From NCBI GenBank assembly GCA_951812955.1, contig OX638340.1, positions 2,592,001 to 2,656,000 on the forward strand: DNA of 64,000 nt. Direction: 5' to 3'. Shown piece by piece: positions 3,999 through 64,000 of this stretch. The DNA comes from an uncultured Gemmatimonadota bacterium. Its GTDB lineage: Bacteria > JAAXHH01. The translations under genes and the position numbers were made by a program. Below the pieces are notes generated by a model. The model did not search any database. It was not told where the DNA came from and saw only the letters and a program-made list of their open reading frames with translations. Positions within the stretch are counted from its first letter, which is position 1; every line of letters starts with the position of its first letter.

Positions 3999-5474
3999 TC
4001 AGATGCCCCGATTTCCCGCTAACCATTTCATCAGGCCTTCAGCGGGCAATTCGGATTTCAGGATGGGCGTCCGTACGCCCTGGGTCCGCAGCAGGGCTTC
4101 GGCGCCCTGGTAACCGCTGCGCACCGCGCTTTCCATGGTAGCCGGCCAGCCCGTCTGTACCCAGTCGCCGGCGAGGAAGAAATTGGAAAGGGGACTGGAT
4201 GGACCGGGGCGCAGTGCGTCGCAACCGGGGTTGGGCGCGAACGTCGCCCTGCCCTCCTTGACGACGATGGCCTTGAGCAGTTCTGCCTGGCGTACGGCGG
4301 GCAGCAGGGACCTGAGATCTTCCATGGCCTGATCGATGATCATCTGTCGCGGCATTTTCATCCATTCATCGGAAGCACTGACTACGAGTCCGAGATAGGC
4401 TCCGTCGTTTTCCATGGCGTTGGTCCCGTCGTTTTCCACGGAGTTGGCTCCGGAGTGCCGATTGGACTGGTTGAATATCCACTGTATCCTCCTTCCGATC
4501 ACCGCGGCGTAGTCCAGTTCCGTCACGGGCCGGTCGAACCAGACGTGGACGGCCGTGATGGGAGAAACCGACAGCCCGGCAAGCATCGCGAAGTAGGGAT
4601 TCGAGGCTTGGCTTTGCGGCAGCAGCCGGCACAAAACATCGAATGGCAGGGCCGAAAGGTATGCCCCGGCCTCGACGGTCGAACCGTCCTGCAGCGAGAT
4701 GGAAGCCACCTTGCCGCCGTGGACGGCAATGCCGGTAACGCCCCGGTTGAACACGACGCGGCCGCCCCGCCGTTCGATGTAATCTATGCACGGCGCGTAC
4801 AGGTCTCCCAGCGGAACGGCGGGCAGCCCCACCTCGTACCCTCGGCGATTGATCAGAAAGGCCCGAACGGCCGTCCCGATTCCGTAATCGGCATCGATGT
4901 CGTCCAGTTCATCGTTGAGCGCACTGATTAGAAAGGGTTTCCAGAAGGCTTCGATGGCCCGCTTCGTTGCGCCGTGGGCTAGAAGCCAGGCAGACATGGA
5001 AACCGGAGACGGTGCTTCGGCGGCCTGATGTGTTTCCGGATAGCCGGTATTCCGTGATCTCATGACGTGGCGGACCATGCCGGCCACGGTGCGGACGATC
5101 GACAGCTTGTCCCGGATTCCCATCGTTTTAAGCCGGAGGAACGATGGAAGCAGGTGCAGGGGCGCGGGGAGACCCGAGGGCCCGATGACCGAAACGCGGT
5201 TGGACTCGTCGATGAATGGAATGGTCTCGTGAAAGTCGATATGGTTCGCGACGCCGAGACGGTCGTAGAAGTCCAGGAGGTTAACACAGCAGCCCAGGAG
5301 CACGTGCTGGCAGTTGTCCACCCGCTCGCCGCTTGACGGGTGTATGAAGGAGGTGGCGCGGCCGCCCAGGATTGGACGTCTTTCGTACAGTTCGACCTCG
5401 AAACCGGCATCGGCCAGCGCAACCGCGCCGGCCAGTCCAGCCAGCCCGCCACCGATTACGATTACCTGGCTCAT
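3999..5474 (-). CDS. hpnE: Hydroxysqualene dehydroxylase HpnE (FAD-dependent amine oxidase family)
   Basis: N-terminal Rossmann dinucleotide motif 'VIVIGGGLAGLAGAVALADAGFEVELYERR'. Amine-oxidase/phytoene-desaturase-like length. Its ATG overlaps the stop of the upstream HpnD gene in an ATGA arrangement, and it sits in hpnC-hpnD-hpnE order. Confidence 0.8.
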   Translation of the reverse strand: MSQVIVIGGGLAGLAGAVALADAGFEVELYERRPILGGRATSFIHPSSGERVDNCQHVLLGCCVNLLDFYDRLGVANHIDFHETIPFIDESNRVSVIGPSGLPAPLHLLPSFLRLKTMGIRDKLSIVRTVAGMVRHVMRSRNTGYPETHQAAEAPSPVSMSAWLLAHGATKRAIEAFWKPFLISALNDELDDIDADYGIGTAVRAFLINRRGYEVGLPAVPLGDLYAPCIDYIERRGGRVVFNRGVTGIAVHGGKVASISLQDGSTVEAGAYLSALPFDVLCRLLPQSQASNPYFAMLAGLSVSPITAVHVWFDRPVTELDYAAVIGRRIQWIFNQSNRHSGANSVENDGTNAMENDGAYLGLVVSASDEWMKMPRQMIIDQAMEDLRSLLPAVRQAELLKAIVVKEGRATFAPNPGCDALRPGPSSPLSNFFLAGDWVQTGWPATMESAVRSGYQGAEALLRTQGVRTPILKSELPAEGLMKWLAGNRGI

Positions 5475-11104: not shown

Positions 11105-11186
11105 AGCGGATCGGCGGATGGTGGGTAGGAGGATGGCACCGTAAGAGACAGCTTCGAGGATTGTGCATGGATTCGCACGTCGCGCC

Positions 11187-11273
11187 CGCGCGAGAACGAA
11201 TGGATAAACCGTGAGACCTGGATACGTGCGTCACGGCCACGCGAAAAGGAATGGATGAACCGTGGAGAACCGG
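11187..11273. repeat. About 33-bp imperfect direct repeat x2 upstream of or overlapping the thiL start
   Basis: 'cgcgagaacgaatggataaaccgtgagacctgg' and 'cgcgaaaaggaatggatgaaccgtggagaaccgg' lie about 52 bp apart. Confidence 0.6.
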
Positions 11274-12305
11274 AAGGAAGGCAAGGGCCTTCCCACCGAA
11301 TTCGAGTTGATCCGCCGAATCGGGCATGCGCTGCCCGAGACGGATCCGAGCGTCATTTTAGGGATCGGCGATGACGCCGCGGCCGTAGAACCCGGACCCG
11401 GTATGACGACCCTGCTGACGACCGATACCTTCGTGGAAGGCGTGGATTTCGACGTTGCCTTCTCGTCCTGGCGGCAGATCGGATGGAAATGCATGGCCGC
11501 CAACTACAGCGATATCGCGGCCATGGGCGGCGTTCCCCGGCACGCGCTGACGACGCTCTGCCTTCCCGCTCATCGCACTGCGGAAGACGTGGAGGCGCTG
11601 TACGCGGGCATTCGCGACTTGACGCAACACACAGGCCAATCGGTGTCCATCGTCGGAGGCGATCTGAGTTCCACGGACGGACCGACCGTCGTCTCCATCA
11701 TGGTAAGGGGAGAAGCGGCAGAGGAACGCATCACGGCGCGCCGCGGCGCCCGTGTGGGAGATGTTCTCTGCGTCACCGGACACCTGGGCGGAAGCGAGGC
11801 CGGTCTTCGCCTGCTCAAATCGGCGCGGGCGCATCCGGAACCGGGGAGACTGGCGGACCGTTTCGAAGGCGCGCTGCGCCGACACCGCACGCCCGTTCCG
11901 CGTGTCCGAGAAGGCGGCATACTGGCATGCAGCGGTTGGGTACACGCCATGATCGACGTAAGCGACGGGCTCAGTTCGGATGCCCTGCACCTGGCTCGTA
12001 GCAGCGGAGTTGGTTTGAAACTGGATGGGAACGCACTGCCAGTCGCGGATGAGACCAGGCAGGTTATGGAGGAGCTTGGGATCGATCCCGTAGAGACTGC
12101 GCTGGAAAGCGGAGAGGAATTCGAACTGCTGTGCGCCGTTGCGCCGGAGAAGGTGGATCGCCTGGCAGCCGAACTCGGGGAACGTACCGGAACGCCCCTG
12201 ACCCCCATTGGCGAATGCGTGTCCGTGGATCGCGGATGCACCTTTTCGGACCACACCGGACCCCGGCCCCTGCGTCCGGGAGGGTACGAACATTTCAGAG
12301 ACTGA
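11262..12305 (+). CDS. thiL: Thiamine-monophosphate kinase
   Basis: 'EFELIRRI..LGIGDDAA' plus AIR-synthase-related (PurM-like) N- and C-domains. Probable GTG start at 11262. Confidence 0.85.
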   Translation: MENRKEGKGLPTEFELIRRIGHALPETDPSVILGIGDDAAAVEPGPGMTTLLTTDTFVEGVDFDVAFSSWRQIGWKCMAANYSDIAAMGGVPRHALTTLCLPAHRTAEDVEALYAGIRDLTQHTGQSVSIVGGDLSSTDGPTVVSIMVRGEAAEERITARRGARVGDVLCVTGHLGGSEAGLRLLKSARAHPEPGRLADRFEGALRRHRTPVPRVREGGILACSGWVHAMIDVSDGLSSDALHLARSSGVGLKLDGNALPVADETRQVMEELGIDPVETALESGEEFELLCAVAPEKVDRLAAELGERTGTPLTPIGECVSVDRGCTFSDHTGPRPLRPGGYEHFRD

Positions 12306-12308
12306 CGG

Positions 12309-12614
12309 CTAGACTTCTATTTCTACGGCATCGCCGGTCACCCGGACCGGGAAGCAGGTGAGATTCTCGTAGGCCGGCGGCGAAAGCACGTCACCCGTAG
12401 TCACGTCAAAAGACGCGCCGTGGAAGGGACACCAGAGATCGGTGCCGTCCAGTTCCCCTTCGCTCAGGGGCGCGCCCATGTGGGGGCAGAAATTATCGGC
12501 GGCATAGTACTTCCCATCCACATTGCACAGGACGATCTCTTTCCCATCGATCGAGACCATTTTCATCTTGCCCGGACTCAATTCATCCAGGTCCGCCGCC
12601 TTGACGTATCCCAT
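12309..12614 (-). CDS. Rieske [2Fe-2S] domain protein (oxygenase ferredoxin component-like)
   Basis: Rieske motifs 'CPHMGAPL' (CxH) and 'CPFHGASF' (CxxH). About 100 aa. Confidence 0.8.
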   Translation of the reverse strand: MGYVKAADLDELSPGKMKMVSIDGKEIVLCNVDGKYYAADNFCPHMGAPLSEGELDGTDLWCPFHGASFDVTTGDVLSPPAYENLTCFPVRVTGDAVEIEV

Positions 12615-12753
12615 GTAAGGATTCTCCTTTCTCGGAATTTCGATCTCCTGGTCCCGGGGTGCCGGACGGTCGCTACGGCCCTCGGTCAGCCTGGTATGAT
12701 GATCTGCCTGGAGTGATAATCGGCTTGGTTCATTGATTAGCCTGAAATCCTGG

Positions 12754-48893: not shown

Positions 48894-49115
48894 TCAGTTT
48901 GAATCCGGCAGGGTCTTCCCTCTGTAGATGGCCAACCATTTGGCGTGAATAGCCTCCCAGTATTCGATGTCCCTGTCGATCTCGTCATCGACTGTTGTTC
49001 CCGTCCAGGGCGTTTCTCTGAGCGGCCTCAGCTTGTGCCATTCAATAAGAAACATCTGGTGTCTGGCATTCATCTTTGACGCCCAGTTAATGCGTCGTGT
49101 ATCTTGCACAGACAT
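48894..49115 (-). CDS. Hypothetical small protein (island-borne)
   Basis: 73-aa ORF at the island's left edge with no recognisable motif. Confidence 0.3.
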   Translation of the reverse strand: MSVQDTRRINWASKMNARHQMFLIEWHKLRPLRETPWTGTTVDDEIDRDIEYWEAIHAKWLAIYRGKTLPDSN

Positions 49116-49319
49116 AACCTTCTCCTTTTCGTGGGAGATCAGTGTTCGGCGGGCGCAAACGCCGTAGATGTACGAATGCCCTTACCCTGTTGCCGAAGGA
49201 CCTCGTTTCAAACTTCTGAGTACAAGAAAACCCTGTCGGCCTTACTGGTCAATCGGGTTTTTGTTTCATTGCATCTCTTAAGTTGAGTCACCTTAGTCTG
49301 ACGGATCTGCCATCGCCAC

Positions 49320-49529
49320 CTAAAATCGTGTTAGAGTGTCTCCAATTCCTCTAGCAATTTCTCTTGCCTCATCATCGTCAAATTCAATCCTGAAATCTTC
49401 AAGGCCTCTATTCGTTTTCTCGATGAGCTTGTCGCGTAGATCTTTTTCATGGAAATACCCTTTTAACAGTTGAGTTAAAAGGTGTTCGATGAACAGGAAT
49501 CTTTTGTAGAATGCCCTTACATCAGTCAA
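49320..49529 (-). CDS. Hypothetical small protein (island-borne)
   Basis: 69-aa ORF with a charged C-terminal half. Lies 49 bp downstream of the 119-aa ORF on the same strand. Confidence 0.3.
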   Translation of the reverse strand: MTDVRAFYKRFLFIEHLLTQLLKGYFHEKDLRDKLIEKTNRGLEDFRIEFDDDEAREIARGIGDTLTRF

Positions 49530-49578
49530 TGGGGTGAATCAGGTTGAAACAATTTCATCTTTTTTACTCCTTCTACGT

Positions 49579-49938
49579 TCACGATCCCTCTCGGCGCAGG
49601 GTTTCGTAATCCCTGGCCCTGTCGCCTATCTCTAACTCGGCCAGCGTGTCGTCGATTCCCGCCTGGTAGGCCTCTCCTACCTGCGAATTGAGCGACTTGA
49701 CCTCCGCTTCCAACTCATCGACTCTGTTTTGTAGTTTCTTTGACGGATCAGGTGTGTACTCTTCCCCAAACAGACGGCTGATAACCTCTTCGAAAGGACT
49801 GGTTGCCGGTTGAGTGACTGCAGGCGGAACATATCCTAAAGCAGCTCGTAATGCGCCCCCGCCTTGGATACCACCGCTGATTCGCTTTAATTTTCTTCTT
49901 GAATCATCAGCTGGTTGATTTTGTTTATTCAAAGGCAT
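49579..49938 (-). CDS. Hypothetical protein, coiled-coil (island-borne)
   Basis: 119-aa ORF with a predicted coiled-coil in the C-terminal half ('VDELEAEVKSLNSQVGEAYQ'). Confidence 0.35.
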   Translation of the reverse strand: MPLNKQNQPADDSRRKLKRISGGIQGGGALRAALGYVPPAVTQPATSPFEEVISRLFGEEYTPDPSKKLQNRVDELEAEVKSLNSQVGEAYQAGIDDTLAELEIGDRARDYETLRREGS

Positions 49939-50120
49939 GGCCTTTCTCCTTTCTAGGTGATGCCATTAACAGTTCGGCCGTTGCCACCGCCGGATGAAAT
50001 ACAAAGAGACCCATACAGATCTCCCACTCTGAGGTCTTGCTGAAAGCCTTCTTTCAAGTTAGCCCGGTCGACTTATGCGGTCATCCGGGTTTCCTGTATT
50101 GCCTGTCCTACCGATCAGTT

Positions 50121-50357
50121 CTAGGCGAAGATGATTTCTCTCACTACTCTCTCCGCGATAGCGTACGACAGACGCGATTCAACGTAGATAAAGAACCAAC
50201 CCTCATTGAAAACGATACGATCTACTTTCCGTTCCTCCCCTTCTTCAGCATGGATATCTCCCACGCTGACACTACGCCGGGCGGTAAGGAGTCCTATTCG
50301 AGATTGATCTGCCGACGGGTCTAATTCCAACTTCAAAGACGCGATGTTTCCTAGCAT
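50121..50357 (-). CDS. Hypothetical small protein (uncertain strand; overlaps the + ORF at 50037..50324)
   Basis: 78-aa ORF in an AT-rich region. It competes with an overlapping ORF on the plus strand and neither has motifs. Confidence 0.2.
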   Translation of the reverse strand: MLGNIASLKLELDPSADQSRIGLLTARRSVSVGDIHAEEGEERKVDRIVFNEGWFFIYVESRLSYAIAERVVREIIFA

Positions 50358-50386
50358 ACCATCCTCCGAAAAGCATGAGTTGACCG

Positions 50387-50408
50387 GCCCCGCCGCGCGG
50401 CGGGGCCG
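50387..50408. promoter_or_regulatory. Perfect 22-bp GC palindrome (strong hairpin) inside AT-rich island non-coding stretch
   Basis: 'ggccccgccgcgcggcggggcc' is identical to its own reverse complement. Confidence 0.5.
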
Positions 50409-51069
50409 TGATATACGGACCGTCTATCTGACTCGGATCCGTCGTGTACGAATCGTGGTCCTTACCGTGCAGGTACGGGTGACCTTTACACGGACCGGGA
50501 CGCGTCTCGTACGTACAGGACTCCTTCGAATCCTGGGCATAGTACGACCCTCCATTTTAAACAGGGCCACTTTTTTGTTGATTTCCACACGAGGGAGGGT
50601 TATAATACGGAGCGACCCTCAGAAAGCGCGCCCTGTTGGTCAATCACCTGTGGCCCGGAGTTCCCTATACTTCGGGCCACTTCTTTATAACGGTGTAATA
50701 TACCTTACGCGGCTTCGTTCGTCAACCTGTTTTGCGCATCATATTCTATCGTTTTCTTCCTGCTCCGCCGATCACCGCAACATGTTGTGTGCTACACATT
50801 TATTGACCTAATAACGGGTGTTTAGTACGTCGATAACATGCTCTTGCCGGAATCGGCTTTCTGGAGAACCTGGAGCTTGAACTCACGGAAGAACTGACGG
50901 CGTTTCAGGGACATGGGGTGTCTCCTCGTTCAGAAGGAAGCTTAACTCTGTGTCCCGTTCAACGGTGCAGTACATCATTCCTACCTAACCCCGCTTTGTT
51001 GTGACGTATACTACCGTGTACAAGCTCCGCAAAATTTGTTATGTACGTCGTGTGTAGGAGATTTCAACT

Positions 51070-51483
51070 ATGGAACAAATCGTTCCCCTATTTCTGAAAT
51101 ACGAATGGTGGCAAATAGTTGCGATTTTCCTCGCCTTGAGTGCGCCGGTCGCTGTTTACTGTATTTTTAAAAACTTCAACCTAACAGAATGGCGCAAAGC
51201 TCGAGACGAAAGGCACAGGGAACGAATGCAGTCCTGCTGTCCCCACGCTGAACGTGTATTGCAAGAAAACGGTGTAGTTTATTTCAAACCACTTATAAAC
51301 TCGTCCGTAAAAACTCGCGAAGGAGTCTGTTCCGAATGTGGAAAATCCTTTCTCCACGGCAGAACTGCCGTACTTGACACTGCAGTCCATTACGAAATGC
51401 ATATCGAAACATATCAAGAACGCGCAAAGGAATACAACACACTCGCCAAAAAATACGGTAAACGACTCCTGAACGTTAAGTAA
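51070..51483 (+). CDS. Hypothetical membrane-anchored protein with Cys4 zinc-ribbon-like motif
   Basis: N-terminal transmembrane helix. Cys pairs 'CCPH' and 'CSEC' are spaced as a possible zinc ribbon. Lies immediately upstream of hsdM. Confidence 0.45.
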   Translation: MEQIVPLFLKYEWWQIVAIFLALSAPVAVYCIFKNFNLTEWRKARDERHRERMQSCCPHAERVLQENGVVYFKPLINSSVKTREGVCSECGKSFLHGRTAVLDTAVHYEMHIETYQERAKEYNTLAKKYGKRLLNVK

Positions 51484-51740
51484 ACCTGGCCTCTGTTTTG
51501 TCCCACATTCGACAATGTCTACCCTTTTCACTTTACATTCCAAAAAAGCGCCTGACCGATAACAGTAAAGTGTGTATACTTTCCGCAGACATTCCAATCG
51601 ACTTACTTACATTAACCTTATAGATTTATATATAGTTATGTGACGTAATTCGGAACAGTTAAGCAGGTATATACAAACTTGCTTTTTAAACTGCCCGAAG
51701 ATTCTACAAGTCGTTAGACGGAATTCAAAGTAAAGGTATC

Positions 51741-54422
51741 ATGAGTCAAGACAAAATCACATTGGCCCAACTAGAGTCCTTCCTATTTAAAGCAGCCGAC
51801 ATCCTGCGCGGGAAGATGGATGCATCCGAATTTAAGGAGTTCATTTTCGGCATGCTGTTCCTGAAACGGCTCTCCGATGAGTTTGATCAAACGCGCGAAC
51901 AGTTACGCGAAAGGGTCTACGCCCACCTAGAACCCGATACAAAGGCAGGAGTGCTTGAGGATAAAACGTCCTATGGAGAGACATTTTACGTACCCGTTCG
52001 TGCACGTTGGCATGAGGAGTGGAAGGATGAGAATGGCGACTTAGTTCCAGCACTCAAGGATCTTAAGAGCGACATTGGCAATATGTTGAATAAAGCTATT
52101 GCTGCGGTCGAGGATGAGAACGACTCACTAGCAGGGGTGCTGAAGAACAACATTGACTTTAATGCTGTTAAGGGTAAGACGAAGATATCTGATCAAAGGT
52201 GGAAGGACTTACTCGATCATTTCAACCAACCTCAGTTTGTCCTGGTTAACGACAATTTTGAGTTCCCCGATCTACTCGGTGCAGCTTATGAATACCTGAT
52301 CAAGTATTTCGCGGACAGCGCAGGTAAAAAGGGAGGCGAGTTTTACACCCCCGCGGAGGTAGTGCGTCTGTTGGTTCAGCTAACCAAACCAACTGCCGGG
52401 AATGAAATCTATGACCCAGCTGTTGGTTCTGGTGGCTTTCTGATTCAGGCACACCAGTATGTCGAAGAGCAGGGTGAGGATCCCAACAATCTGGCCCTAT
52501 ATGGTCAGGATTCCAACGGCACCACCTGGTCGATCTGTAACATGAACATGATTCTTCACAACATCACGCGTTTCACGATTGAGAACGACGACACTTTGGA
52601 AAATCCTCTGATATTGCAGAATGGTCAGGTTCGAAAGTTCGACCGCGTGCTGGCCAATCCCCCATTTTCGCAGAACTACACCCGCGCCAACGTGAAATTT
52701 ACCAATCGTTTCCGAGAGTGGTGCCCAGAGACAGGCAAGAAAGCTGATCTAATGTTCGTCCAGCACATGTTGGCAAGTCTCAAAGGCGACGGCCACATGG
52801 CTACCATTATGCCTCACGGTGTCCTCTTTCGCGGAGGCAAGGAGAAGCTGATTCGGGAACTGTTGATAGACGACGATGTTATCGAGGCAATCATCAGTTT
52901 GCCTCCAGGGTTATTTTACGGGACTGGCATACCGGCTTGCGTGCTCGTTTGCGATAAGAACAAGCCCGACGAGTTGCGCGACAAAGTCTTATTCATCAAC
53001 GCAGACCGCGAGTATGCCGAAGGAAAGAATCAAAACAAGCTGCGGCCGGAGGATGTGGAGAAAATCGACTTTGTGTTCTCCAACAAACTCGAGATCCCCC
53101 AATATAGCCGGCTCGTACATAAATCAGAGATCGCCGACAAGCACGACTACAATCTGAACATTCGACGCTATGTAGATAATACCCCTAAGCCAGAGCCGGA
53201 GGACGTGCAAGCCCATCTAATCGGCGGCATCCCTGAATCTGAAGTTGCAGCGAAAGAAGATAGTTTCTCTAAGTTTGGCTTTCAGGCCAAAACGCTATTC
53301 TGCCCTGATCGACCAGGCTACCTCGCATTCAGAGAGTCGATTACAGGCAGATCGGTCATCAAAGAGATCATTGAAGGGGATCCATCGATCGTGCAGACGT
53401 TGAAAATACATCGCAATGCACTCAAGCAATGGTGGAACGTAGCCCGTGATGAATTCGCCGAGCTTGAGCATGGCAATCACAGCGGTCGAAAGATGCCCAA
53501 AGTGCGTCATGAGCTTATGAAGACACTCAAGGGTAAGCTCGTTCCGCTATGTGTACTCGACGAGTTCAAGAGTGCGGGCGTTTTCGTCAACTGGTGGCAG
53601 CAAATTCGCTATGACCTGAAGACCATTGTTTCAACAGGATGGCATCATACACTCATCCCAAAAGAATATCTGACCGCCGCGTTTTTCCAGAGTGATGCAG
53701 ATGCTATTGAGGAACTGGAGACCCGTATAGGTGAACTACAGGCAGAATTTGCTGAAGCCGTGGAAACTGCTCAAGAGGTCGCCGCGTATGAGCCGGAAGA
53801 AGATAAAACGGTAACGGCATCGGCCATTAAGACAGCTCTAACGGACCTCATTAATGACCTAAAGGATAGCACTGGCGAGTCGGCCAAGCGAGAGCTTAAC
53901 ATACTCAAGGCACAGGATGTTGCTATAAAGGACATAGAAAAGAAGATCAGGAGCAGCAAAATTTCATTAAAGAATAAGACCATGGAATTGGAAGACAAAC
54001 TCCAACTCAAGCGACTCGGAGGAGATGGATTCAAGAGCGAAAATCAGAGACTCATAGAGGAAGACGAAAGCCAGATTGCATTACTGAATCCAAGCAACAA
54101 AACTGAAAATACAAAGATCAATGCGTTAAATAAAGATATCGCTGTACTTGAGGAACGTATCGCCAAGACCCACGCGGTACTGGAGGCACTCGGTGGTTCA
54201 CTAACCGATGACGAAGCCAAGCATCTCATCCTCAAGAAGCTCTACGACATCGTGAGCACTGAATTCGAACGCTACCTCAATGCAGAGATACGTCACCTAA
54301 TTTCAGGTGTCGAAAAACTGTGGAGTAAATACGCCAGCAGCAGCCAGAAGATAGAAAGCGACCGAGAAATCACGCTCGGCCAGCTCAATGCATTTCTAAG
54401 TAGATTGGGATATATGGGATGA
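51741..54422 (+). CDS. hsdM: Type I restriction-modification system methyltransferase subunit (N6-adenine), with long coiled-coil C-terminal extension
   Basis: HsdM N-terminal domain ('[10 protein letters not shown]'-like '[17 protein letters not shown]'). AdoMet motif I '[12 protein letters not shown]'. Catalytic motif IV 'NPPFS'. At 893 aa it is longer than the ~500-800 aa typical of HsdM. Confidence 0.9.
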
Positions 54423-55618
54423 GTAAGAAATTTGAAACGCTATCGAAAATCGGTCTTCTTCGAATGGGAGAAACGATTATCGCAAAGGACTGTTCTGGAG
54501 ATGGTTTGCCAATCTATTCCGCAAATAAAGGGAACAAGCCATGGGCGCATTCCGACCACTTTAGATGCAAAAATGAAAGAGGCTGTATTGTCATAGGGGC
54601 AAGAGGAACTATTGGCTATCCACGTCTTCCGAAAGATGAACTGTTTGGCGCAACTCAAACCACAATCGTATTTTCTCCTGACAAAGATCATTTTATCCCG
54701 GAATTCCTGCACTACAGCCTGCAACAAGTTGATTTTGAGAGTCTCGGAGCACAGCAGGCAATTCCTATGCTCACTGTTTCCAATTTAGAGAACCTAACGA
54801 TTCGTTCGTTCAAAAAACCTGAACAATCTAAGATCGCCAAGATTCTTACAACGGTCGATCAGGCGATTGAACAGACCGAAGCGTTGATAGCAAAACAGCA
54901 ACGCACCAAGACCGGTCTGATGCAAGACCTGCTCACACGCGGTATCGACGAAGATGGAAACCTTCGCTCCGAAGACACCCATGAATTTAAAGATTCACCG
55001 TTTGGGCGTATTCCGGTGGAGTGGGTAGTGAAAGAACTAAGTGATTTTTGCGACGTAACATCCAGTAAACGCATATACTTACATGATTACAATACAGAAG
55101 GTATTCCGTTCTATCGTTCAAAAGAAATCATCGAACTGGTAAGGGAAGGAAAAACTCTTGGTGGATTATATATCACGAAAAGTAAGTATCTTGCAATAAA
55201 GCGCATCTTTGGAACTCCTAATAAGGGCGACGTACTCATTAGCTCAGTAGGAACTCTTGGAATTTGCTATTTGGTCAGGGACAACGATCGATTCTATTTT
55301 AAAGATGGAAATCTCATCTGGCTCCGTCGATTTCAAAAACATATGAATCGGATATTTTTAATAGAATTACTACCAAGGATGATCAATACCCAATTTGATG
55401 ATCTTGTGATTGGGACAAGTCAAAAGGCATTCACGATTGAGAAGCTTAAGCGTCTCAAGCTTTATTTCCCATCGACCGAGGAGCAGAATAGACTAGCGGT
55501 TTCTGTTCAACAGTTCCAAGCTAAAATCGATTGCGAGATACAAAGTCTGCAAAAACTCCGATTCCTCAAGACCGCTTTAATGCATGACCTCCTCACTGGC
55601 AAGGTTTCTGTCAGGTAG
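54419..55618 (+). CDS. hsdS: Type I restriction-modification specificity subunit
   Basis: Two target-recognition domains separated by conserved central and C-terminal helical repeats. The central conserved motif reads '[28 protein letters not shown]' and the C-terminal one '[20 protein letters not shown]'. Its ATG overlaps the hsdM stop in an ATGA arrangement. Confidence 0.85.
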
Positions 55619-55644
55619 TTAATCACAGAAGCGGAGAGCAGTAT

Positions 55645-58600
55645 ATGAGTAAAAACGAGTCTCCAGCGCACATTAAACTCGACGAAAGGAATCACGTTGA
55701 GAAGCCAATTCTTGATCAGCTTGAGGGTATGGGCTGGGAGATTATCGACCTCGACAGTCAGCAACTCCCTGTAGATACTCACCGCGAGACTTTATTGGAA
55801 GTTGTCATGTTCCCAGTGTTGCGTGAGCAACTCAAGGTCATCAATCCCTGGATAGAGAACGATCAGGTTGAAGAGGTCGTCAAGCAACTTTCTGCGAGTT
55901 TCCCAGGCACGGGGCTGACTGAGAGTAACAAGCATGTGCTTCATCTGCTGCTCGGAAACACAATCGTCAGTGAAAATCGGCAATCCGGTGAGAATAGCCC
56001 GACTGTGCGCTATATCGACTTCAAGAACCTGGACAACAACCGATTCATTGCAGTTTGCCAATTCAAAGTCCGCATCTTGGGCACGGAGAAACACATCATC
56101 CCGGATATCGTGTTATTCGTAAATGGTCTACCGGTGGTTGTAGTCGAGTGCAAGTCCCCTAAAGTAAAGGATGCCATCCCAGAGGCCATCGACCAGATAC
56201 TACGCTACAGCGAGCAGCGGGGTGACAAAGGCGAGGGAAGTGCTCCACTCTTTTATTACAACCAGTTTGTAGTCGCCACATGTCGCCAGGAGGCCAAGTT
56301 TGGGACGATAACCACGCATATTGAAAAACATTTTTTTCGTTGGGCTGATCCTTATCCAAAAACGCTCAATGATCTCGAGCATGGCTCTGGTACTCCAAAC
56401 GATCAGCAGCGCCTGGTCGCTGGGATGATGGCTAAAGATAACCTGCTCGATCTCATTCGCACCTTCACTCTGTTTTCAACCAACGATAAAGGTCAGACCA
56501 TTAAGATCGTCGGACGATATCAGCAGTACCGCGCGGTCAAAATCGCTGTTAAGCGTCTCATGGAAGGCGCGACCCCACGGGAACGCAGCGGCATCATCTG
56601 GCACACTCAGGGATCCGGTAAATCGCTGACCATGATGTTTATGGTGCGTGAGATGTACCAACAACCGAAACTGGCAAGCTGGAAAGTGGTATTCGTCACT
56701 GATCGGACACAACTCGAAAATCAGTTGAGCGAGACCAGCCAAAGCATTGGGTTCACAGTGAAGACGGCGAACAAGATCAGCGAGTTGAAGGAACTCCTGA
56801 GCACTGATACGTCGGATTTGGTCATGGGTATGATCCACAAATTTCAAGAAGACGATCTTGAAGAGACCTTCCCACAGCTAAACGACAGCCCCAATATACT
56901 GGTCATGACTGATGAAGCTCACCGTTCTCAATACAAGCTACTTGGTGCGAATCTTGACAGAGCTATACCCAATGCTGCAAAAATCGGCTATACAGGCACT
57001 CCGATTGATAAGACAGAGCAAGTCTTTGGCGACTACATCGACAAATATACCATGCGGCAGTCCATAGACGATGGTGTGACTTTGGAGATAGTCTATGAAG
57101 GTCGCACTCACAACGCGGAAGTCTCTGACCAGGAAGGTATGGATGAGGCGTTCACTGATGTGTTCAGCGATTACAACATTGAGGAAAGACTTGCAATCCT
57201 TGGCTACGGTACCCGAAGAGCCTATCTGGAAGCAGAAACAACGATTGAAGCCAAAGCCAAGGATATGATTAATCACTACCTGAAGCATGTATATCCGAAT
57301 GGCTACAAGGCACAGATTGTAGCCACTTCTCGGGAGGCTGCTGTCCGCTACAAGAAGCACGTAGACAATACCCTTGAAGCTTCAATTGCTGATCTGGAAA
57401 AATCAAATCCAAATGGTCTTGATTTGGATCTGTTAAAGTCTATTGAGACAGATGTAGTGATTTCTGGGGAAGGAAACGATTTAAGTCATCTAAAAACATA
57501 CTCAAACCCGACCAAGCACGAGAGTAGCATCAAAAGTTTCAAGATGGATTTCGGTGGTGAAGTTGACGGTCTTCATGGAAACATGGGAATACTTATTGTC
57601 AATAACATGCTTATCACGGGATTCGACGCCCCTGTAGAACAGGTTATGTATTTGGACAAAGTCATTTTTGGCCACAACTTGTTGCAGGCCATCGCAAGGG
57701 TAAATCGTGTTGCAGGTGAGGCCAAGGGTAAAGGCTTTGTAATCGATTATGTTGGGATTGGTCATAACCTAAAGAGGGCAATTGATCTTTATGATAAGAA
57801 AGAAAAGAACGAAATCATCGATACACTTGTTTTTCCTGAAGAAGCATTGCGTGAATTGGAGGATAGCCATGCCGAGATCTTAGCTTTTCGGGAAGCGAAC
57901 GGCTTAGAGGAATTGGCAGACTTGGATGCATATTACGATGTGTTTTATGATGAGGCACTACGTTTTGAATACATGCAGTCTTTCAAGAAGTTCACTAGGA
58001 ATCTGAATTCAGTGTTCCCAGCTAGGCAGGCTTTGGAATACATGGACGAATATAATGTATACGCTGAAATCAACACACTTGCTGGAAAGCATTTTAGAGA
58101 TGAACGATTAAGTATGAAGGGAATCCCACCGAAGCTCCTCGCAATCACAGACAAGTACTTGGTGTCAGAAGGTATACATCAGCAGGTCAAACCAGTCTCA
58201 ATTTTGGACGATTCATTCCAAGAATCTGTTAACAGCCATACACGTACAAAGACAAAAGCAGCTGAAATCGAGCATGCTATTCGACACCACCTAGATGTAG
58301 AATTGAATGACGATCCAGATTTGCAGGCATCCTTTGCAGAAGCGCTTGCTAAAATACTGCAAGAGTTCAAGGACAATTGGAGCAAGGTTTACGAGGAATT
58401 GGAGAAGTTACGACAGCGTATCATCAACGTTAGTAAAGAGCCCACATATGGGCTTAGTCGAAAAAAACAGATGCCATTCTTTCGATGTTACAAAAGGGAG
58501 ATGTTTGGCGAAAATGAGCTTAATGAAGATGAGATTTCACTTCTTGTCGACTTAACTAAGCAGGTATTTTCTGTGATAGAACTTGAGCTGAAGTTGATTG

Positions 58601-58773
58601 GTTTTTGGGAAAGCATTTCTGCACGCAACAAACTAAGGGCTGAAATTCAGAAAAAACTGCTTGGATCTACTTACGCGGCATTACCACACATAGTAGAGAA
58701 AAAAGACAGCATTATCAGCCGCACGATGGAGATCGCGGAGAAGAACAACGATATCATACTTTATGCGGAATAA
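55645..58773 (+). CDS. hsdR: Type I restriction enzyme endonuclease/helicase subunit
   Basis: HsdR N-terminal nuclease domain ('VVECK'). SF2 helicase motifs: Walker A 'HTQGSGKS' and DEAH-box 'MTDEAHRS'. 1042 aa. Confidence 0.9.
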   Translation: MSKNESPAHIKLDERNHVEKPILDQLEGMGWEIIDLDSQQLPVDTHRETLLEVVMFPVLREQLKVINPWIENDQVEEVVKQLSASFPGTGLTESNKHVLHLLLGNTIVSENRQSGENSPTVRYIDFKNLDNNRFIAVCQFKVRILGTEKHIIPDIVLFVNGLPVVVVECKSPKVKDAIPEAIDQILRYSEQRGDKGEGSAPLFYYNQFVVATCRQEAKFGTITTHIEKHFFRWADPYPKTLNDLEHGSGTPNDQQRLVAGMMAKDNLLDLIRTFTLFSTNDKGQTIKIVGRYQQYRAVKIAVKRLMEGATPRERSGIIWHTQGSGKSLTMMFMVREMYQQPKLASWKVVFVTDRTQLENQLSETSQSIGFTVKTANKISELKELLSTDTSDLVMGMIHKFQEDDLEETFPQLNDSPNILVMTDEAHRSQYKLLGANLDRAIPNAAKIGYTGTPIDKTEQVFGDYIDKYTMRQSIDDGVTLEIVYEGRTHNAEVSDQEGMDEAFTDVFSDYNIEERLAILGYGTRRAYLEAETTIEAKAKDMINHYLKHVYPNGYKAQIVATSREAAVRYKKHVDNTLEASIADLEKSNPNGLDLDLLKSIETDVVISGEGNDLSHLKTYSNPTKHESSIKSFKMDFGGEVDGLHGNMGILIVNNMLITGFDAPVEQVMYLDKVIFGHNLLQAIARVNRVAGEAKGKGFVIDYVGIGHNLKRAIDLYDKKEKNEIIDTLVFPEEALRELEDSHAEILAFREANGLEELADLDAYYDVFYDEALRFEYMQSFKKFTRNLNSVFPARQALEYMDEYNVYAEINTLAGKHFRDERLSMKGIPPKLLAITDKYLVSEGIHQQVKPVSILDDSFQESVNSHTRTKTKAAEIEHAIRHHLDVELNDDPDLQASFAEALAKILQEFKDNWSKVYEELEKLRQRIINVSKEPTYGLSRKKQMPFFRCYKREMFGENELNEDEISLLVDLTKQVFSVIELELKLIGFWESISARNKLRAEIQKKLLGSTYAALPHIVEKKDSIISRTMEIAEKNNDIILYAE

Positions 58774-58776
58774 CTG

Positions 58777-59460
58777 ATGAACGTGGACTATACAGTAAAG
58801 CGATCGCATAAGCGAAAGAAGCTGACAATTACAGTTGAGCGTGACCGGCAGGTTGTGATCTCCGCTCCCGAGTCAACTTCTGAGGAGGCAATTAGAAGAT
58901 ACATCGAATCGAAACGCCAGTGGATTTACGAGAAGTTGAATCACCTGCAGAAATACGAAACTCAACCTCATCCGCCTGGTAAGGAATTAGTAAATGGTGA
59001 ATCTACGCTTTATCTTGGCTCCGAGTATCAGATCCAGATTATCACTAGCAGTACGACTGAGATACGATTAGAGCAACGTTTTCTAGTTCCGAATTCTTTG
59101 GCGGGAGAAAGAAGGAAGGTATTTCAAAAATGGTATGTCGACCGGGCTAAAGAGAACATATTACCAAAAGTAAAATCGTTCGCCAGTATGCTCGGAGTGG
59201 AGTTTGCCAATGCGAAGATCATGGATAGTCGCTACCGTTGGGGCTCTTGTACAATCAAAGACAACATCAACTTAAACTGGCGTTTAATTAAAGCACCTAT
59301 GTTCGTAATCGACTATGTAGTAGTTCACGAACTCGCACATCTGATGGAGGCAAACCACACCTCTCGATTCTGGAATATCGTTAGGACGCACGCACCATTG
59401 ATGGAAAAGGCTCAAAGATGGCTTAAAGAAAATGGCCAGATACTCGAACAGGATATCTAG
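58777..59460 (+). CDS. DUF45/YgjP-like (WLM/M48-like) zinc metallopeptidase, often found with Type I RM loci
   Basis: HExxH motif 'VVHELAHLME'. Starts 3 nt after the hsdR stop. Confidence 0.75.
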   Translation: MNVDYTVKRSHKRKKLTITVERDRQVVISAPESTSEEAIRRYIESKRQWIYEKLNHLQKYETQPHPPGKELVNGESTLYLGSEYQIQIITSSTTEIRLEQRFLVPNSLAGERRKVFQKWYVDRAKENILPKVKSFASMLGVEFANAKIMDSRYRWGSCTIKDNINLNWRLIKAPMFVIDYVVVHELAHLMEANHTSRFWNIVRTHAPLMEKAQRWLKENGQILEQDI

Positions 59461-59525
59461 CGCGCAGTTCGAATAAACCAGTATCAGGTATTAACTGAAT
59501 CGTCGATTCATCCGCTTTTTTTAGA

Positions 59526-59921
59526 TTATCCGCATCCGCACACCAGCGCCTTACCCTCGGTGGCCTGCAGCCCCTCGGTTTCGTAGCCGTCCCGCATCCA
59601 CCAGTCCAGCCCGCCAATTAGTTCCTTTACGTTGAAACCCAACCTCGCCATGTTGAGCGCGCCCTTGGTCGACGCGTTGCAACCGATCCCATCGCAATAG
59701 GTTACGTACAGTGATTTTTTGTTCAGGTCGGCCGTGGAATCGGGATCCATGGTCCGGTGGGGAATGTTAACGGAGCCGGGGATATGCCGTTCGGTGTACG
59801 CTTCGGCGGACCGCGTGTCCACTACGACGATGTCATTGCCCAGGGTGATGGATTCCCACAGGTCGTAGGCATCGATCTCGTATTTCAGCTTACTCTCGTA
59901 GTGGGTAATCTGGTCTTTCAT
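59526..59921 (-). CDS. Rhodanese-like single-domain sulfurtransferase
   Basis: Active-site loop 'YCDGIGCNAS'. Start at 'MKDQ' (59921). The ORF as called runs to 59966. GC is intermediate (~55%). Confidence 0.7.
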   Translation of the reverse strand: MKDQITHYESKLKYEIDAYDLWESITLGNDIVVVDTRSAEAYTERHIPGSVNIPHRTMDPDSTADLNKKSLYVTYCDGIGCNASTKGALNMARLGFNVKELIGGLDWWMRDGYETEGLQATEGKALVCGCG

Positions 59922-60271
59922 TGTGCCTCTAACTGGTATGAGCCAAAGTGGGTGGTTCTGCGACACATCTATCTTAGGGAATACAAGAAGCTACCCAGCT
60001 CATTTCTAGTATAACAAATTAGCGTGCTGGATAGTGTATTCGTCTCAATTCTTCTTTAGGTTTATAACGCGGTTGGAATTTCTATACACGGCCATCAAGC
60101 CGAAAAATCCAGTTTATATTAGGAGTTGTGTCTGAAACTTCGGACCTATGGCGGGCATTACTCGCGAGGATTTGTAAATCTTTATATAAAACTAAACTCA
60201 AGTTACTCGCCCAATCTATCGATTAATGGTTTCATCTTAGCAGTTGATGTTTAATCTGAAATGAATGGATA

Positions 60272-61018
60272 TCAATGGACAAGAGCTTGAAACTCTTTCC
60301 CATTCATAGGCTTGTGTTTCGTCCAGCTTCCGCTCATTTCAACCAGGATTCGCTGCATCCATGAGTATGAATCAGAGGTGTAGATTTTCAGCACTCTAGC
60401 TTTGTATTCGGGATGTTCTTTCATAGCTTTAGTTAAATCATAAACCAAGTAACGAGGTGACCAACCAATCATGTGATAATCTAAAGTCTGGATTTGAACT
60501 GCCACCTTTGATACAGGATTGGTTAGTTCCAAGGTTACATACAACGGTTCATCTTCCTCTAATTTACTTAATCGGTTCTTTGCCGGTTTATTGATATGTC
60601 GAGTTCCGTGAAGAAAAAACCGGCACGTAAAGCTACCATCCGCTTCCTTGCGGATTTTCGGAAACACCTCATATGAATCAGTTACACGATTACCTCCATT
60701 AATGGATAGGATCTCAATTGGATCTGCTTCGTCACAGAGATCAAACCCCTTAAGGTAGTCCTCAAATTCTGGCCTCGATCGATTCAGAATTCGATTCTTA
60801 AATAACGGAAACAACTCCTTTGATGTATATTCATGGTCGAAACTAGGGAATTCAACCAGTGGAGCGAATCGTGCTTTTTCCATTGCCCGTTTTGCGCCGT
60901 AGATATAACGAAACTTAAAGAAAGGTTCGTTGATATCGGCATCAAGTCGACCTACGGGATACCATTCTCGGGTTGTTACCTGATCTTGCCAAGCAAGAAA
61001 AAGTGTTCTGAAGTTCAC
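60272..61018 (-). CDS. Hypothetical 248-aa protein, translationally coupled partner of the HipA-like kinase
   Basis: GTG start overlapping the kinase stop in a GTGA arrangement. No recognisable motif. AT-rich codon usage like the rest of the island. Confidence 0.5.
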   Translation of the reverse strand: MNFRTLFLAWQDQVTTREWYPVGRLDADINEPFFKFRYIYGAKRAMEKARFAPLVEFPSFDHEYTSKELFPLFKNRILNRSRPEFEDYLKGFDLCDEADPIEILSINGGNRVTDSYEVFPKIRKEADGSFTCRFFLHGTRHINKPAKNRLSKLEEDEPLYVTLELTNPVSKVAVQIQTLDYHMIGWSPRYLVYDLTKAMKEHPEYKARVLKIYTSDSYSWMQRILVEMSGSWTKHKPMNGKEFQALVH

Positions 61019-61905
61019 GAATCTATCTCCAATAGTTTTTGACGGTTATATAACATTAAATTCATTGCGAATTGTCGGGCGTGTATGCTCATCCAATCAT
61101 CTGGAATACGATTAACGATTTCCTCAAGGCTGCTTATGTCAAGTTGGTAGAGTCTTTGCAAAACGGAACTAAAAGACTCCGGTAGTTCATTGAATGTAGT
61201 GCGCACGACGCCAAGGGGGCTTAGCCCTCTAGTGTCTTCGCTAGACCTGTAAATCGGGCTTCGACCTTTTTCGGCATATTGTCCAACTCTATCCTCATCT
61301 AACAATCGAATACGCCTGTCATCATCGATTTCTCTTCCCAGAGACGATGCGTGGTCATATGACGGTGCCATAGTTTTCGACACCATAGAAAAATCCATCA
61401 AAACTCCCCAGTTTTCGTGATGTCGATCAGTGTTTCCAATAAACGCATCTAAGATTATGTATTCACAGAAAGTTTGTTTTGCACTATCGGCTTTTTCTTG
61501 TTCAAATACTGTCTCAAGAACGCTCCAGATATTAAAGATGGTATGGTCTGATTGCTTTTGTGTCTTTTCTGGCTCATATTCATTAAATATAAAACTCAGA
61601 AGTTGGTTACCATGAATCAGTTCATGGTAACGATCGGTAAATGACTTGGTAGCTGTTCCTTTGGTTTGCCTGAAAACGGCTAATTCGACGATTGCATGTG
61701 GGATATTGAGTAATTCTGCAACTTCAGATGCAACCTTTTCAGCCCAATGTTCGCCCCTACTCTCTCGATGGTATTTAAAAAGCCATAGTTCATCTTCAGA
61801 TTCGGATCGATTGAACCAGAATTTAGGTTTGCTTCCCATTTCTTCCTGAAGATACTGGTCTTCCTTAATTTCCTCGATCTGATAGTCATTCAACTTCCGC
61901 CCCAT
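61015..61905 (-). CDS. HipA-family (HipA_C-like) Ser/Thr kinase, short form lacking the HipA N-terminal subdomain
   Basis: 'GSKPKFWF' resembles the Gly-rich ATP-binding loop of HipA. The catalytic motif 'ILDAFIGNTDRHHENWG' matches the HipA/CtkA 'GNxDxHxxN' pattern, and 'APSYDHAS' matches HipA 'xPxYDxxS'. Confidence 0.6.
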   Translation of the reverse strand: MGRKLNDYQIEEIKEDQYLQEEMGSKPKFWFNRSESEDELWLFKYHRESRGEHWAEKVASEVAELLNIPHAIVELAVFRQTKGTATKSFTDRYHELIHGNQLLSFIFNEYEPEKTQKQSDHTIFNIWSVLETVFEQEKADSAKQTFCEYIILDAFIGNTDRHHENWGVLMDFSMVSKTMAPSYDHASSLGREIDDDRRIRLLDEDRVGQYAEKGRSPIYRSSEDTRGLSPLGVVRTTFNELPESFSSVLQRLYQLDISSLEEIVNRIPDDWMSIHARQFAMNLMLYNRQKLLEIDS

Positions 61906-62439
61906 TTTTCTCGGTCTATGTCATTGGGCCTTAACATCCTGTTTTGCAATATCCAATGCGATGTTTGTTTTTTACGGTCCATCCCCAGTCACTAATGCGT
62001 CCACTTATGGCCTTTGGACAGATAAATTGCATGTCCTCGGTTTCCTCGGCTCGGTAGGAATCCTGCCGACTTGGACCACACGTCATTTCACGTCTGAGTG
62101 GCGGTTTTCACGACATGGCCCTCCAGTATGTGTCATTTCCTTATTTAACGCTATTAAACCAAAAAGTACCAGATGAACTGCAGGTGCTCCTCCAACTTGT
62201 CTGAGCACGTTCAATAGATCTCGATCATAATTTCGACTAAGTCTACGACAGTCATCCGTATTTCGCAATCCTTTCTCAAGCCGTAGAGCGGTGAAGTTAC
62301 GATCAGTTTTGAAACTGTCGTCTGGGAAAATTGCTATATATGTAAAATGTCTTCGTAGACTAGGTTTAGCGAAAAACTAATTACATCACGACTAGACTTG
62401 TCTGTGGATTTGCCATCATAGTCTGGCAATTTTCACCAA

Positions 62440-62457
62440 TGTCTACCCAGGTAGACA
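62440..62457. promoter_or_regulatory. 18-bp inverted repeat, candidate operator upstream of the HipA-like operon
   Basis: 'tgtctacc ca ggtagaca' has perfect 8-bp arms. It lies about 535 bp upstream of the kinase start on the minus strand, in an AT-rich leader. Confidence 0.3.
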
Positions 62458-62839
62458 CATACTCTGGGTGACTCCTTTCGGGATGAAGGCGGACAGGTCC
62501 GCCCTGTCCGACCGAACATAAATCTTTGTTCGGTATTGCAATTATACGGTTTTCCGGGGGCCATAGCAATACTAAATTGAACAGGTACTATTCAGATGCG
62601 ATTTCTAATTGATACACATCCGCGTGTTGATCAGTACAGGTCAATATACTGGTCAATACCGTCTTGCTGTCTTGACCGTACAGCACTTCTTTTTCTAAGC
62701 ATTCCCACGCTTACTATAGAAAGTGTTTCAGTTTCTTTGGCGAACCATTTCCGTCAAATCGGTGATAATTCACCTCCATCGACAACAGGGGTAATCTCAC
62801 ATTTCTGCTAATTACCTAAGCCTTAAAACCACCATCCAG

Positions 62840-64000
62840 TGGATCGGCCTGATCGCCGGTCCAGTCGTGGCGATCCTGCTCTACAGCCAGTTGCCCCATG
62901 CGTACATGAGCGGCACGGGCGAGGTGGTGGCGTTCTCGAACGCCGGCCGTGCGACATTGGCCCTGGCGGTGTGGATGGCGATCTGGTGGATGACAGAGGC
63001 CGTCGAGCTTTACGCCACGGCATTGTTGCCCCTGGTCGCCCTTCCGTTGGCCGGTGCGTCACCGGTGCGGGAAGCGGCCGCTCCCTACGCACACGAGTTG
63101 ATCTTCCTCTTCATGGGCGGTTTTCTCATCGCCCTGGCCATGCAGCGATGGGGGCTCCACCGACGCATGGCGTTCAAGGCCCTGCGTGCGGCCGGCGACC
63201 ACCCGGCGGGCATCGTGGCGTGCTTCATGGGCGTGACGGCCTTTTTCAGCATGTGGGTGTCCAACACGGCCACCGCGGTCATGATGCTCCCCATTGCCCT
63301 CAGCATCATCGCCTTGGTGGAGCAGGTGGAACCCGGTAGCGTGGCAGGCGGCGCTGGAAACGGCAGCACAGATAACAATGGTGCAGGAAGCGGAAATTCT
63401 GCCGCCGGAAACGGTGGCCCCGGAAGCGGCGTAGCAGTAGACGGTGACACGGGCAACGGCGGCCCCGGAAACAAAGGGCCTGAAACAAAGACGCGGCCCC
63501 ATTTCGCCCTGTGCCTGCTTCTGGGCATCGCCTACGCCGCATCCATCGGCGGGATCGGTACGATCATCGGCACGCCGCCCAACGTATTCCTCGCGTCCTT
63601 CATCCAGTCCAACCTGGGCCAGGAGATCAGCTTCGTCCGGTGGATGGGCGTGGGACTTCCCCTGGTGGCCGTTTTCCTGCCGCTGACGTGGCTGATGCTG
63701 ACCCGAGTCCTTTATCCCCTTCGGGCCGTGCGCATCGAGGGAAGCCGGGAGGTGACGGATAAGGCCTACCGGGAACTGGGCTCCATGTCGCGGGGGGAGA
63801 GGGTCGTGCTGGCGGTGTTCCTCCTCGCCGCCGTATCCTGGATTGCCCGTCCGTTGCTGGTCCAGGTCCAGATAGGTGACCTGACCCCGCTGGCCGGTCT
63901 GTCCGATCCGGTCATCGCCATGGTTGCGGCGCTGGCCCTCTTCGTCGTGCCGGTGGACGTAAAACGGCGAATCTTCGTGATGAACTGGGAAACGGCCGTG
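62840..64000 (+). CDS. SLC13/DASS family anion:Na+ symporter (partial; runs off window end; no canonical start codon at its 5' end)
   Basis: Frame is open from 62795 to the window end. Return to ~67% GC. Hydrophobic transmembrane segments and Gly-rich loop 'GAGNGSTDNNGAGSGN'. Internal ATG at 62906 and TTG at 62891. Confidence 0.55.

Follow-up and report, generated by a model that had tools for sequence, protein, structure and literature searches.

A short HipA-family kinase gene and its overlapping partner in a Gemmatimonadota defence island: a further copy of hipIN (PADLOC PDC-M03)

Introduction

What kind of system is encoded when a short HipA-family kinase gene is followed by a gene that overlaps its stop codon, and no HipB-type antitoxin gene stands before it? 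The question is raised by a pair of minus-strand genes in a stretch of 64,000 nucleotides (the window) from an uncultured Gemmatimonadota bacterium (assembly GCA_951812955.1, contig OX638340.1, positions 2,592,001 to 2,656,000). An earlier annotation made from the letters alone (the sequence-only reading) had described the pair as a candidate novel module, made up of a HipA-like kinase and a 248-aa partner with no recognisable domain. The analysis reported here identifies it as a further copy of a catalogued kind, hipIN in the literature and PDC-M03 in PADLOC, the match to hipIN being one of architecture and not of tree placement. The partner is predicted to provide in trans the N-subdomain that the kinase is without, fused to a HIRAN domain. 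The favoured reading, to which we give a probability of roughly 0.6, is that the kinase would be toxic and would be held inactive by the HipS-like domain of its partner, with the HIRAN domain acting as a DNA sensor or tether. The toxin-antitoxin (TA) or abortive-infection role first proposed for the pair appears plausible by analogy with related systems.

The kinase

Both open reading frames (ORFs) and the overlap between them are present as read from the letters (Table 1). The two genes have 4 nt in common, formed by the TGA stop of the kinase and the GTG start of the partner, and a GGAG sequence lies 8 nt 5' of that start (61030..61027); translation of the partner is predicted to be coupled to that of the kinase via this GTGA overlap. 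The hidden Markov model search that had been proposed as a check gave a match of the kinase to Pfam PF07804 (HipA_C) at 48.9 bits against a cut-off of 30.5 (E 8.6e-13, residues 24-188), and PADLOC PDC-M03A matches nearly the whole protein (E 2.9e-87, residues 7-294). The motifs from which the family had been recognised, GSKPKFWF (residues 24-31), GNTDRHHENWG and PSYDHAS, are thus not chance resemblances. The absence of the N-terminal subdomain was also read correctly, since the HipA_C match starts at residue 24 and the Pfam search returned no Couple_hipA match. NCBIfam gave nothing for either the kinase or the partner, and the assembly index has no entry identical to the kinase; the kinase search recovered 4,581 homologue clusters.

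The residues expected at the active site are strongly conserved. In the Gly-rich loop, G24, K26, K28, F29 and W30 are invariant among 33 homologues and S25 is conserved in at least 90% of them, Ser25 being a possible autophosphorylation site. In the catalytic motif, which aligns with GNFDRHNGNWG of CtkA, residues N158, D160, R161, H162, E164, N165 and W166 are invariant in the sets of 29 and 33 homologues. In the same two sets D184 and H185 of the Mg2+-binding motif, aligned with APIFDCGS of CtkA, are invariant, and A186 and S187 are invariant or nearly so. Taken over all regions, G24, K28, K44, D160, N165 and D184 are invariant across the 29-33 kinase homologues, and the active site is intact and conserved, with every catalytic motif in place. 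The structure model of the kinase has the HipA/CtkA kinase fold and is nearest to CtkA, HipT and HipA; the closest solved structure is that of CtkA (Helicobacter pylori JHP0940; PDB 3akj), in line with the earlier suggestion to look at CtkA models. CtkA has been described as pro-inflammatory, with an action on host cells.

The partner

The partner matches PADLOC PDC-M03B over residues 3-246 (E 2.7e-72). Its score against Pfam HIRAN, 22.8 bits, is slightly below the cut-off of 24.7; the family (PF08797) is present in many partner homologues. When the fold of the partner was compared with known structures, as the sequence-only reading had advised, matches were found both to HIRAN and to HipS and the N-subdomain-1 of HipA, and the N-domain superposes on HipA N-subdomain-1. 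The N-terminal domain of the partner is therefore predicted to fold like HipS and like the N-subdomain-1 'lid' absent from the kinase, and the C-terminal domain is modelled as a HIRAN fold. The statement that the partner has no recognisable domain has to be given up, and the possibility, raised at the same time, that it might prove to be a metabolic enzyme is not borne out. The link to HipS comes from the fold comparison only: by sequence, no Pfam match to HipS or Couple_hipA was obtained at E <= 1, and no PDB match either with the single sequence or with a profile.

The HIRAN domain of HLTF binds 3' DNA ends. A profile alignment of the partner with the DNA-binding motifs of HLTF HIRAN gave E 0.56, which is not significant and serves as a lead only. 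The partner family comprises 1475 homologue clusters at 90% identity and 1598 representatives at 50% identity; the best 150 of these 1598 are all standalone proteins of at most 339 aa, mostly of about 250 aa, with no partner-effector fusion among them.

Comparison with known Hip systems

The architecture described above was defined as hipIN by Gerdes, Baerentsen & Brodersen (2021), in which a HipI kinase is paired with HipN, a HipS-like domain fused to HIRAN (PMC8262856). [quoted passage not shown] The pair in the window shares with them a short core kinase without N-subdomain-1 (296 aa here, 279-321 aa in the published set; PMC8262856), a Gly-rich loop near the kinase N-terminus with a Ser beside it, the absence of HipB, the kinase-first order and a partner with C-terminal HIRAN. 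It differs in its distribution, since the subfamily studied here spans phyla beyond the 2021 set (Latescibacterota, Binatia, Acidobacteriota, Nitrospirales and others) and this copy is nearest to one from a Gemmatimonadetes metagenome-assembled genome (MAG). Compared with the PADLOC-DB v2 candidate PDC-M03, in which the published annotation lists HipA and HIRAN domain proteins (PMC13245101), no difference was detected: the two adjacent genes match components A (HipA-like) and B (HIRAN protein) over their full length. RefSeq also holds pairs labelled 'HipA-like' and 'HIRAN domain-containing', and the module is consequently not novel as had been supposed. Additionally, HIRAN-HipA operons have been noted next to diDNase genes in Gram-positive bacteria, with their function called unexplored (NAR 2025, PMC11706625). 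A literature search found no experimental test or defence assay of hipIN, hipL or PDC-M03.

Among the characterised systems, HipBST of Escherichia coli O127 and Legionella is also a split HipA, in which the kinase is without N-subdomain-1 and a separate protein bears that fold. However, HipBST has three genes (hipB-hipS-hipT), of which hipS lies upstream of the kinase gene and encodes a separate protein of about 100 aa, whereas here there are two genes with the kinase first, no HipB, and a HipS-like fold that forms the N-domain of a 248-aa protein encoded downstream. HipBA of E. coli K-12 and S. oneidensis shares the kinase superfamily and the catalytic motifs, but its HipA is about 440 aa long and carries the lid in cis, its HTH (helix-turn-helix) antitoxin HipB is encoded upstream and its target is GltX. 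The order of genes had accordingly been judged correctly as different from both hipBA and hipBST. HipL carries these three domains too, arranged as they are here (PMC8262856); it is a single polypeptide from a monocistronic gene, while in the window the chain is split after the kinase by the 4-nt overlap.

Proposed mechanism

These comparisons suggest how the pair might work. By analogy with HipBST, the free kinase would be toxic, probably through phosphorylation of an aminoacyl-tRNA synthetase or another factor essential for translation; the synthetase as target is only a guess, because the kinase resembles CtkA more closely than it does HipA or HipT. In HipBST, HipT is neutralised when HipS places its Trp65 next to the Gly-rich loop (PMC10627512), and the HipS-like domain of the partner would likewise dock on the kinase by its Gly-rich loop and keep it inactive, the partner being the antitoxin. 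Candidates in the partner for the part played by Trp65 are W10, W19, F57, F70 and F73, all of them invariant. More speculatively, the HIRAN domain may sense phage DNA ends, replication intermediates or damaged DNA, and its binding to DNA might lift the inhibition, upon which the kinase would arrest growth as a form of abortive infection. A proposal of this kind was made by the authors who defined hipIN: neutralisation of the kinase would fall to the HipS-like domain, and HIRAN may trigger abortive infection on recognising the ends of phage DNA (PMC8262856).

The same architecture could also be taken as a split HipA holoenzyme, with the partner as an obligatory lid and the complex as the active form, recruited by HIRAN to DNA ends where it would phosphorylate DNA-bound proteins of host or phage. 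This is improbable in our view, as HipS serves as the antitoxin in the two split systems that have been characterised, HipBST of E. coli and of Legionella (PMC10627512, PMC9325769), and a lone kinase that is harmless would be under little pressure to be inactivated in the way described in the next section.

The absence of HipB invites a further alternative. As had been stated from the sequence, there is no HipB-like gene upstream: no HTH or other Pfam domain was found in the small ORFs within 1 kb upstream of the kinase, though a DNA-binding antitoxin is part of most Hip modules (criterion iii, PMC8262856). The pair might then simply be a type II TA module of the addiction type, serving to stabilise the island; HIRAN would replace the HTH of HipB and autoregulate the operon, with no phage sensing. 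This is unlikely, yet with a real chance of being right. The HIRAN domains characterised so far recognise DNA ends or single-stranded DNA and not specific operators (PMC8262856), and no conserved operator-like repeat was seen beside the kinase start; the distribution of the family, discussed below, bears on this alternative from both sides.

Conservation of the pair and decay of the kinase

Relatives of the partner were sought by a genome scan over a set of 185,579 species; with the single partner protein as query the scan returned nothing, an alignment being needed. The alignment-based scan gave 452 loci encoding partner relatives, which represent the close subfamily alone, and a metagenome scan added 71 partner loci. 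The best 80 of the 452 (L001-L080) are 54-62% identical and are spread over MAGs of at least 10 phyla, among them Latescibacterota, Binatia, Acidobacteriota, Gemmatimonadota, Nitrospirales and Gammaproteobacteria. Many of these MAGs originate from common sequencing projects, and the pattern implies that the close subfamily has been passed on horizontally, and extensively, among organisms that share a habitat.

The expectation that the two genes would be conserved as neighbours is well supported. Among the 127 partner-selected loci with enough upstream sequence, a full-length kinase homologue abuts the partner in 72. A 4-nt overlap is found in 69 of 80 loci with a full-length kinase match (ATGA in 61, GTGA in 7, TTGA in 1), and nine more of the 80 have a 1-nt overlap. 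All six loci selected by the kinase have an intact partner of 248-249 aa downstream. More distant copies keep the same arrangement: the Nostoc mobilizable plasmid pn5 (L158, 217-1922), whose two proteins carry the RefSeq labels 'HipA-like protein' and 'HIRAN domain-containing protein', and Vibrio phage 10N.286.55.A12_PE001 (L159, record 10953-12646) both encode a pair with a 4-nt overlap, at 28-34% identity, and in 14-kb Vibrio Vinavirales elements the pair lies beside an integrase. The pairing and the 4-nt overlap are hence conserved across many phyla, plasmids and prophage-like elements. PHROG families exist for both proteins (phrog_8728, phrog_8026); distant members are present in PHROGs and in GenBank phages, and the viral contigs of IMG/VR contained no relative of the close subfamily.

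In the remaining loci of the 127 the kinase is truncated, internally deleted or interrupted (30 loci) or absent (25 loci), so that it is broken or gone in 55 of 127 (43%) with the partner kept intact, a figure to be read with the caveat that the loci were chosen via the partner and that the kinase-first sample is small (n=6). In such loci the two domains of the partner each retain about 96-98% of the residues that are invariant in the family, and stops occur in only 3 of 47 partners. Decayed kinases are seen, for instance, at L002 4510-4995, L003 4876-4995, L013 4582-4995 and L037 4718-4975. This pattern looks like the decay of a toxin with an orphan antitoxin-like gene kept, and it fits a kinase that would be toxic and a partner that would neutralise it, subject to the same caveat of partner-first sampling. 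A kinase that is harmless when alone, as the split holoenzyme would have it, gives little reason for the inactivation found in 30 of the 127 loci. Decay that strikes the toxin and leaves the antitoxin in place is, on the other hand, classic TA behaviour, and it agrees with a module that only stabilises its island.

Loci without a kinase raise another alternative, in which the partner would be a portable sensor with interchangeable effectors (kinase, NYN RNase, TIR, DUF7002, DUF4276). Where the kinase is missing, the gene directly next to the partner start encodes an NYN protein (L028 and L070, with a 1-nt gap), DUF7002 (L031), a ThsB-like TIR (L072), DUF4276 (L122) or PIN (L029). Each of these pairings occurs in only one or two loci, however, and the TIR protein is ThsB of Thoeris, the DUF4276 protein is HEC-01B and another neighbour is PDC-M19B, all of them parts of other catalogued systems or candidates. 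The NYN-partner pairs of L028 and L070 look like a clean deletion of the kinase, because L155 has the order NYN-kinase-partner. With neighbours drawn from other systems, the order in L155 and no fusions among the best 150 of the 1598 partner representatives, the idea of interchangeable effectors was rejected and is regarded as very improbable indeed.

Two of these neighbours deserve description in their own right. A 208-aa NYN gene lies upstream of the module in Latescibacterota-type loci (L028 and L070, 4373-4999; L155, 3067-3693); an intact kinase follows it in L155; L028 and L070 have cleanly lost the kinase, with 1 nt between the NYN stop and the start of the partner. In L031 the DUF7002 gene (4296-4967; PF22531, E 7e-68) occupies the kinase slot between a 540-aa ORF and the partner, with hsdR downstream; this gene has no PADLOC match.

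Association with type I restriction-modification

The kinase/partner module is often nested in type I restriction-modification (R-M) operons. In about 23 of 151 related loci, counted from clustering and Pfam since tblastn with the Hsd proteins of the window was too insensitive, hsdM/hsdS upstream and/or hsdR downstream are encoded on the same strand; hsdM/hsdS precede the module in about 14 loci, and hsdR follows it directly in about 11. The order hsdM-hsdS-kinase-partner is seen in L093 (32-4747), with a gap of 6 nt between hsdS and the kinase. Further R-M-associated loci are L034 (1796-9465), L063 and L069 (4114-9279) and L031 (2677-9656). Other defence genes are also found among the neighbours of related loci. 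In the window itself the pair adjoins the R-M operon and is convergent with it, not embedded in it.

Both the nesting in R-M operons and the presence of the pair on plasmids and prophage-like elements speak for a defence role, as far as gene neighbourhood can indicate one. The mobile contexts of the pair (the island, plasmids and prophage-like elements) would also be expected of an addiction module that stabilises the DNA carrying it; nevertheless, the strong link to R-M and other defence genes fits defence better than simple maintenance.

PrrC is a suicide-type anticodon nuclease whose gene is nested in the EcoprrI type I R-M locus. The hipIN loci resemble it in that about 23 of 151 are flanked by hsd genes, so that an effector gene lies in a type I R-M operon; PrrC differs in being an anticodon nuclease with no sequence relation to the kinase, and the pair in the window adjoins its R-M operon instead of being embedded. 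On this model the pair might be a DNA-end-triggered kinase system of abortive infection linked to type I restriction, with the kinase as a second line: HIRAN would sense 3' ends or replication intermediates arising from phage or from restriction cuts, and would then release the CtkA-like kinase. Such a link would account for the frequent position of the module between hsdS and hsdR, comparable to that of PrrC in EcoprrI; we consider this more specific version rather unlikely.

Genomic setting of the copy in the window

The pair is carried in a horizontally acquired defence island, and the sequence-only reading was right about both the type I R-M neighbour (hsdM, hsdS and hsdR are all present) and the foreign character of the region. 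The GC (guanine plus cytosine) fraction is about 0.38-0.55 across positions ~49000-63000, compared with 0.60-0.65 on either flank. The 64-kb window contains no tRNA, and no convincing direct repeats flank the island. The closest kinase relative, with 91% identity, is encoded in the Gemmatimonadetes MAG GCA_009841265.1, on a contig with the same island layout (hsdM, hsdS, hsdR, YgjP, rhodanese, hipN, hipI).

Several features of the island may be recorded separately. The rhodanese ORF lies within a 500-nt stretch of GC 0.55, above the rest of the island, and the order of the YgjP-like gene and the rhodanese ORF is also kept in the Gemmatimonadetes relative L152. HsdM is unusually long, with 893 aa here and 895 aa in L152; its Pfam HsdM_N and N6_Mtase matches end at about residue 481, followed by some 400 C-terminal residues without a detected domain. 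A sigma-70-like promoter (TTGCTA-17-TATAAT, 62569-62541, minus strand) is located ~530-640 nt upstream of the kinase and is followed by a 105-nt stretch with three predicted hairpins (minimum free energy -45.2 kcal/mol, z -5.0), the whole element covering 62430-62571 on the minus strand. Within the 1-kb intergenic region common to the window and L152, no other stretch is as well conserved as this block, and the differences between the two are in loops or preserve pairing. Rfam gave no match within 59400-63000, and none of the other 156 loci has the element; a leader, a small RNA or an island-end element would be possible explanations of it.

Table 1. Positions in the window of the kinase and partner genes, their motifs and domains, and the neighbouring genes of the island
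Feature	Position	Strand	Description
hipI-like gene	61015..61905	minus	ATG start, 296 aa; core-only short HipA/CtkA-fold Ser/Thr kinase
Gly-rich (P-) loop MGSKPKFW	61816..61839	minus	kinase residues 23-30; Ser25 adjacent
Catalytic motif GNTDRHHENWG	61405..61437	minus	kinase residues 157-167; Asp160 putative catalytic base; Asn165
Mg2+-binding motif PSYDHAS	61345..61365	minus	kinase residues 181-187; Asp184
GTGA stop/start overlap	61015..61018	minus	plus-strand letters tcac
hipN-like gene	60272..61018	minus	GTG start, 248 aa; two-domain partner, putative antitoxin and sensor
HipS-like / HipA N-subdomain-1-like domain of partner (predicted)	60659..61018	minus	approximately residues 1-120
HIRAN domain of partner (predicted)	60341..60631	minus	C-terminal; Pfam match residues 130-226
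hsdM	51741-54422		type I R-M
hsdS	54419-55618		type I R-M
hsdR	55645-58773		type I R-M
YgjP-like metallopeptidase gene	58777-59460		start 4 nt past hsdR stop
Rhodanese ORF	59526-59966	minus	between YgjP-like gene and kinase/partner pair

Concluding remarks

No new category is needed for the pair in this Gemmatimonadota island, which adds a copy to a family so far described in silico only, with 14 examples in 2021, and catalogued as a candidate for defence. With about 1,600 partner representatives at 50% identity, this family far exceeds the first report in size and spread. Moreover, the decay of the kinase with the partner kept provides comparative evidence that the kinase may be the costly or toxic part of the module, and hipIN would be a reasonable target for a first experiment on a kinase regulated via a HIRAN domain.

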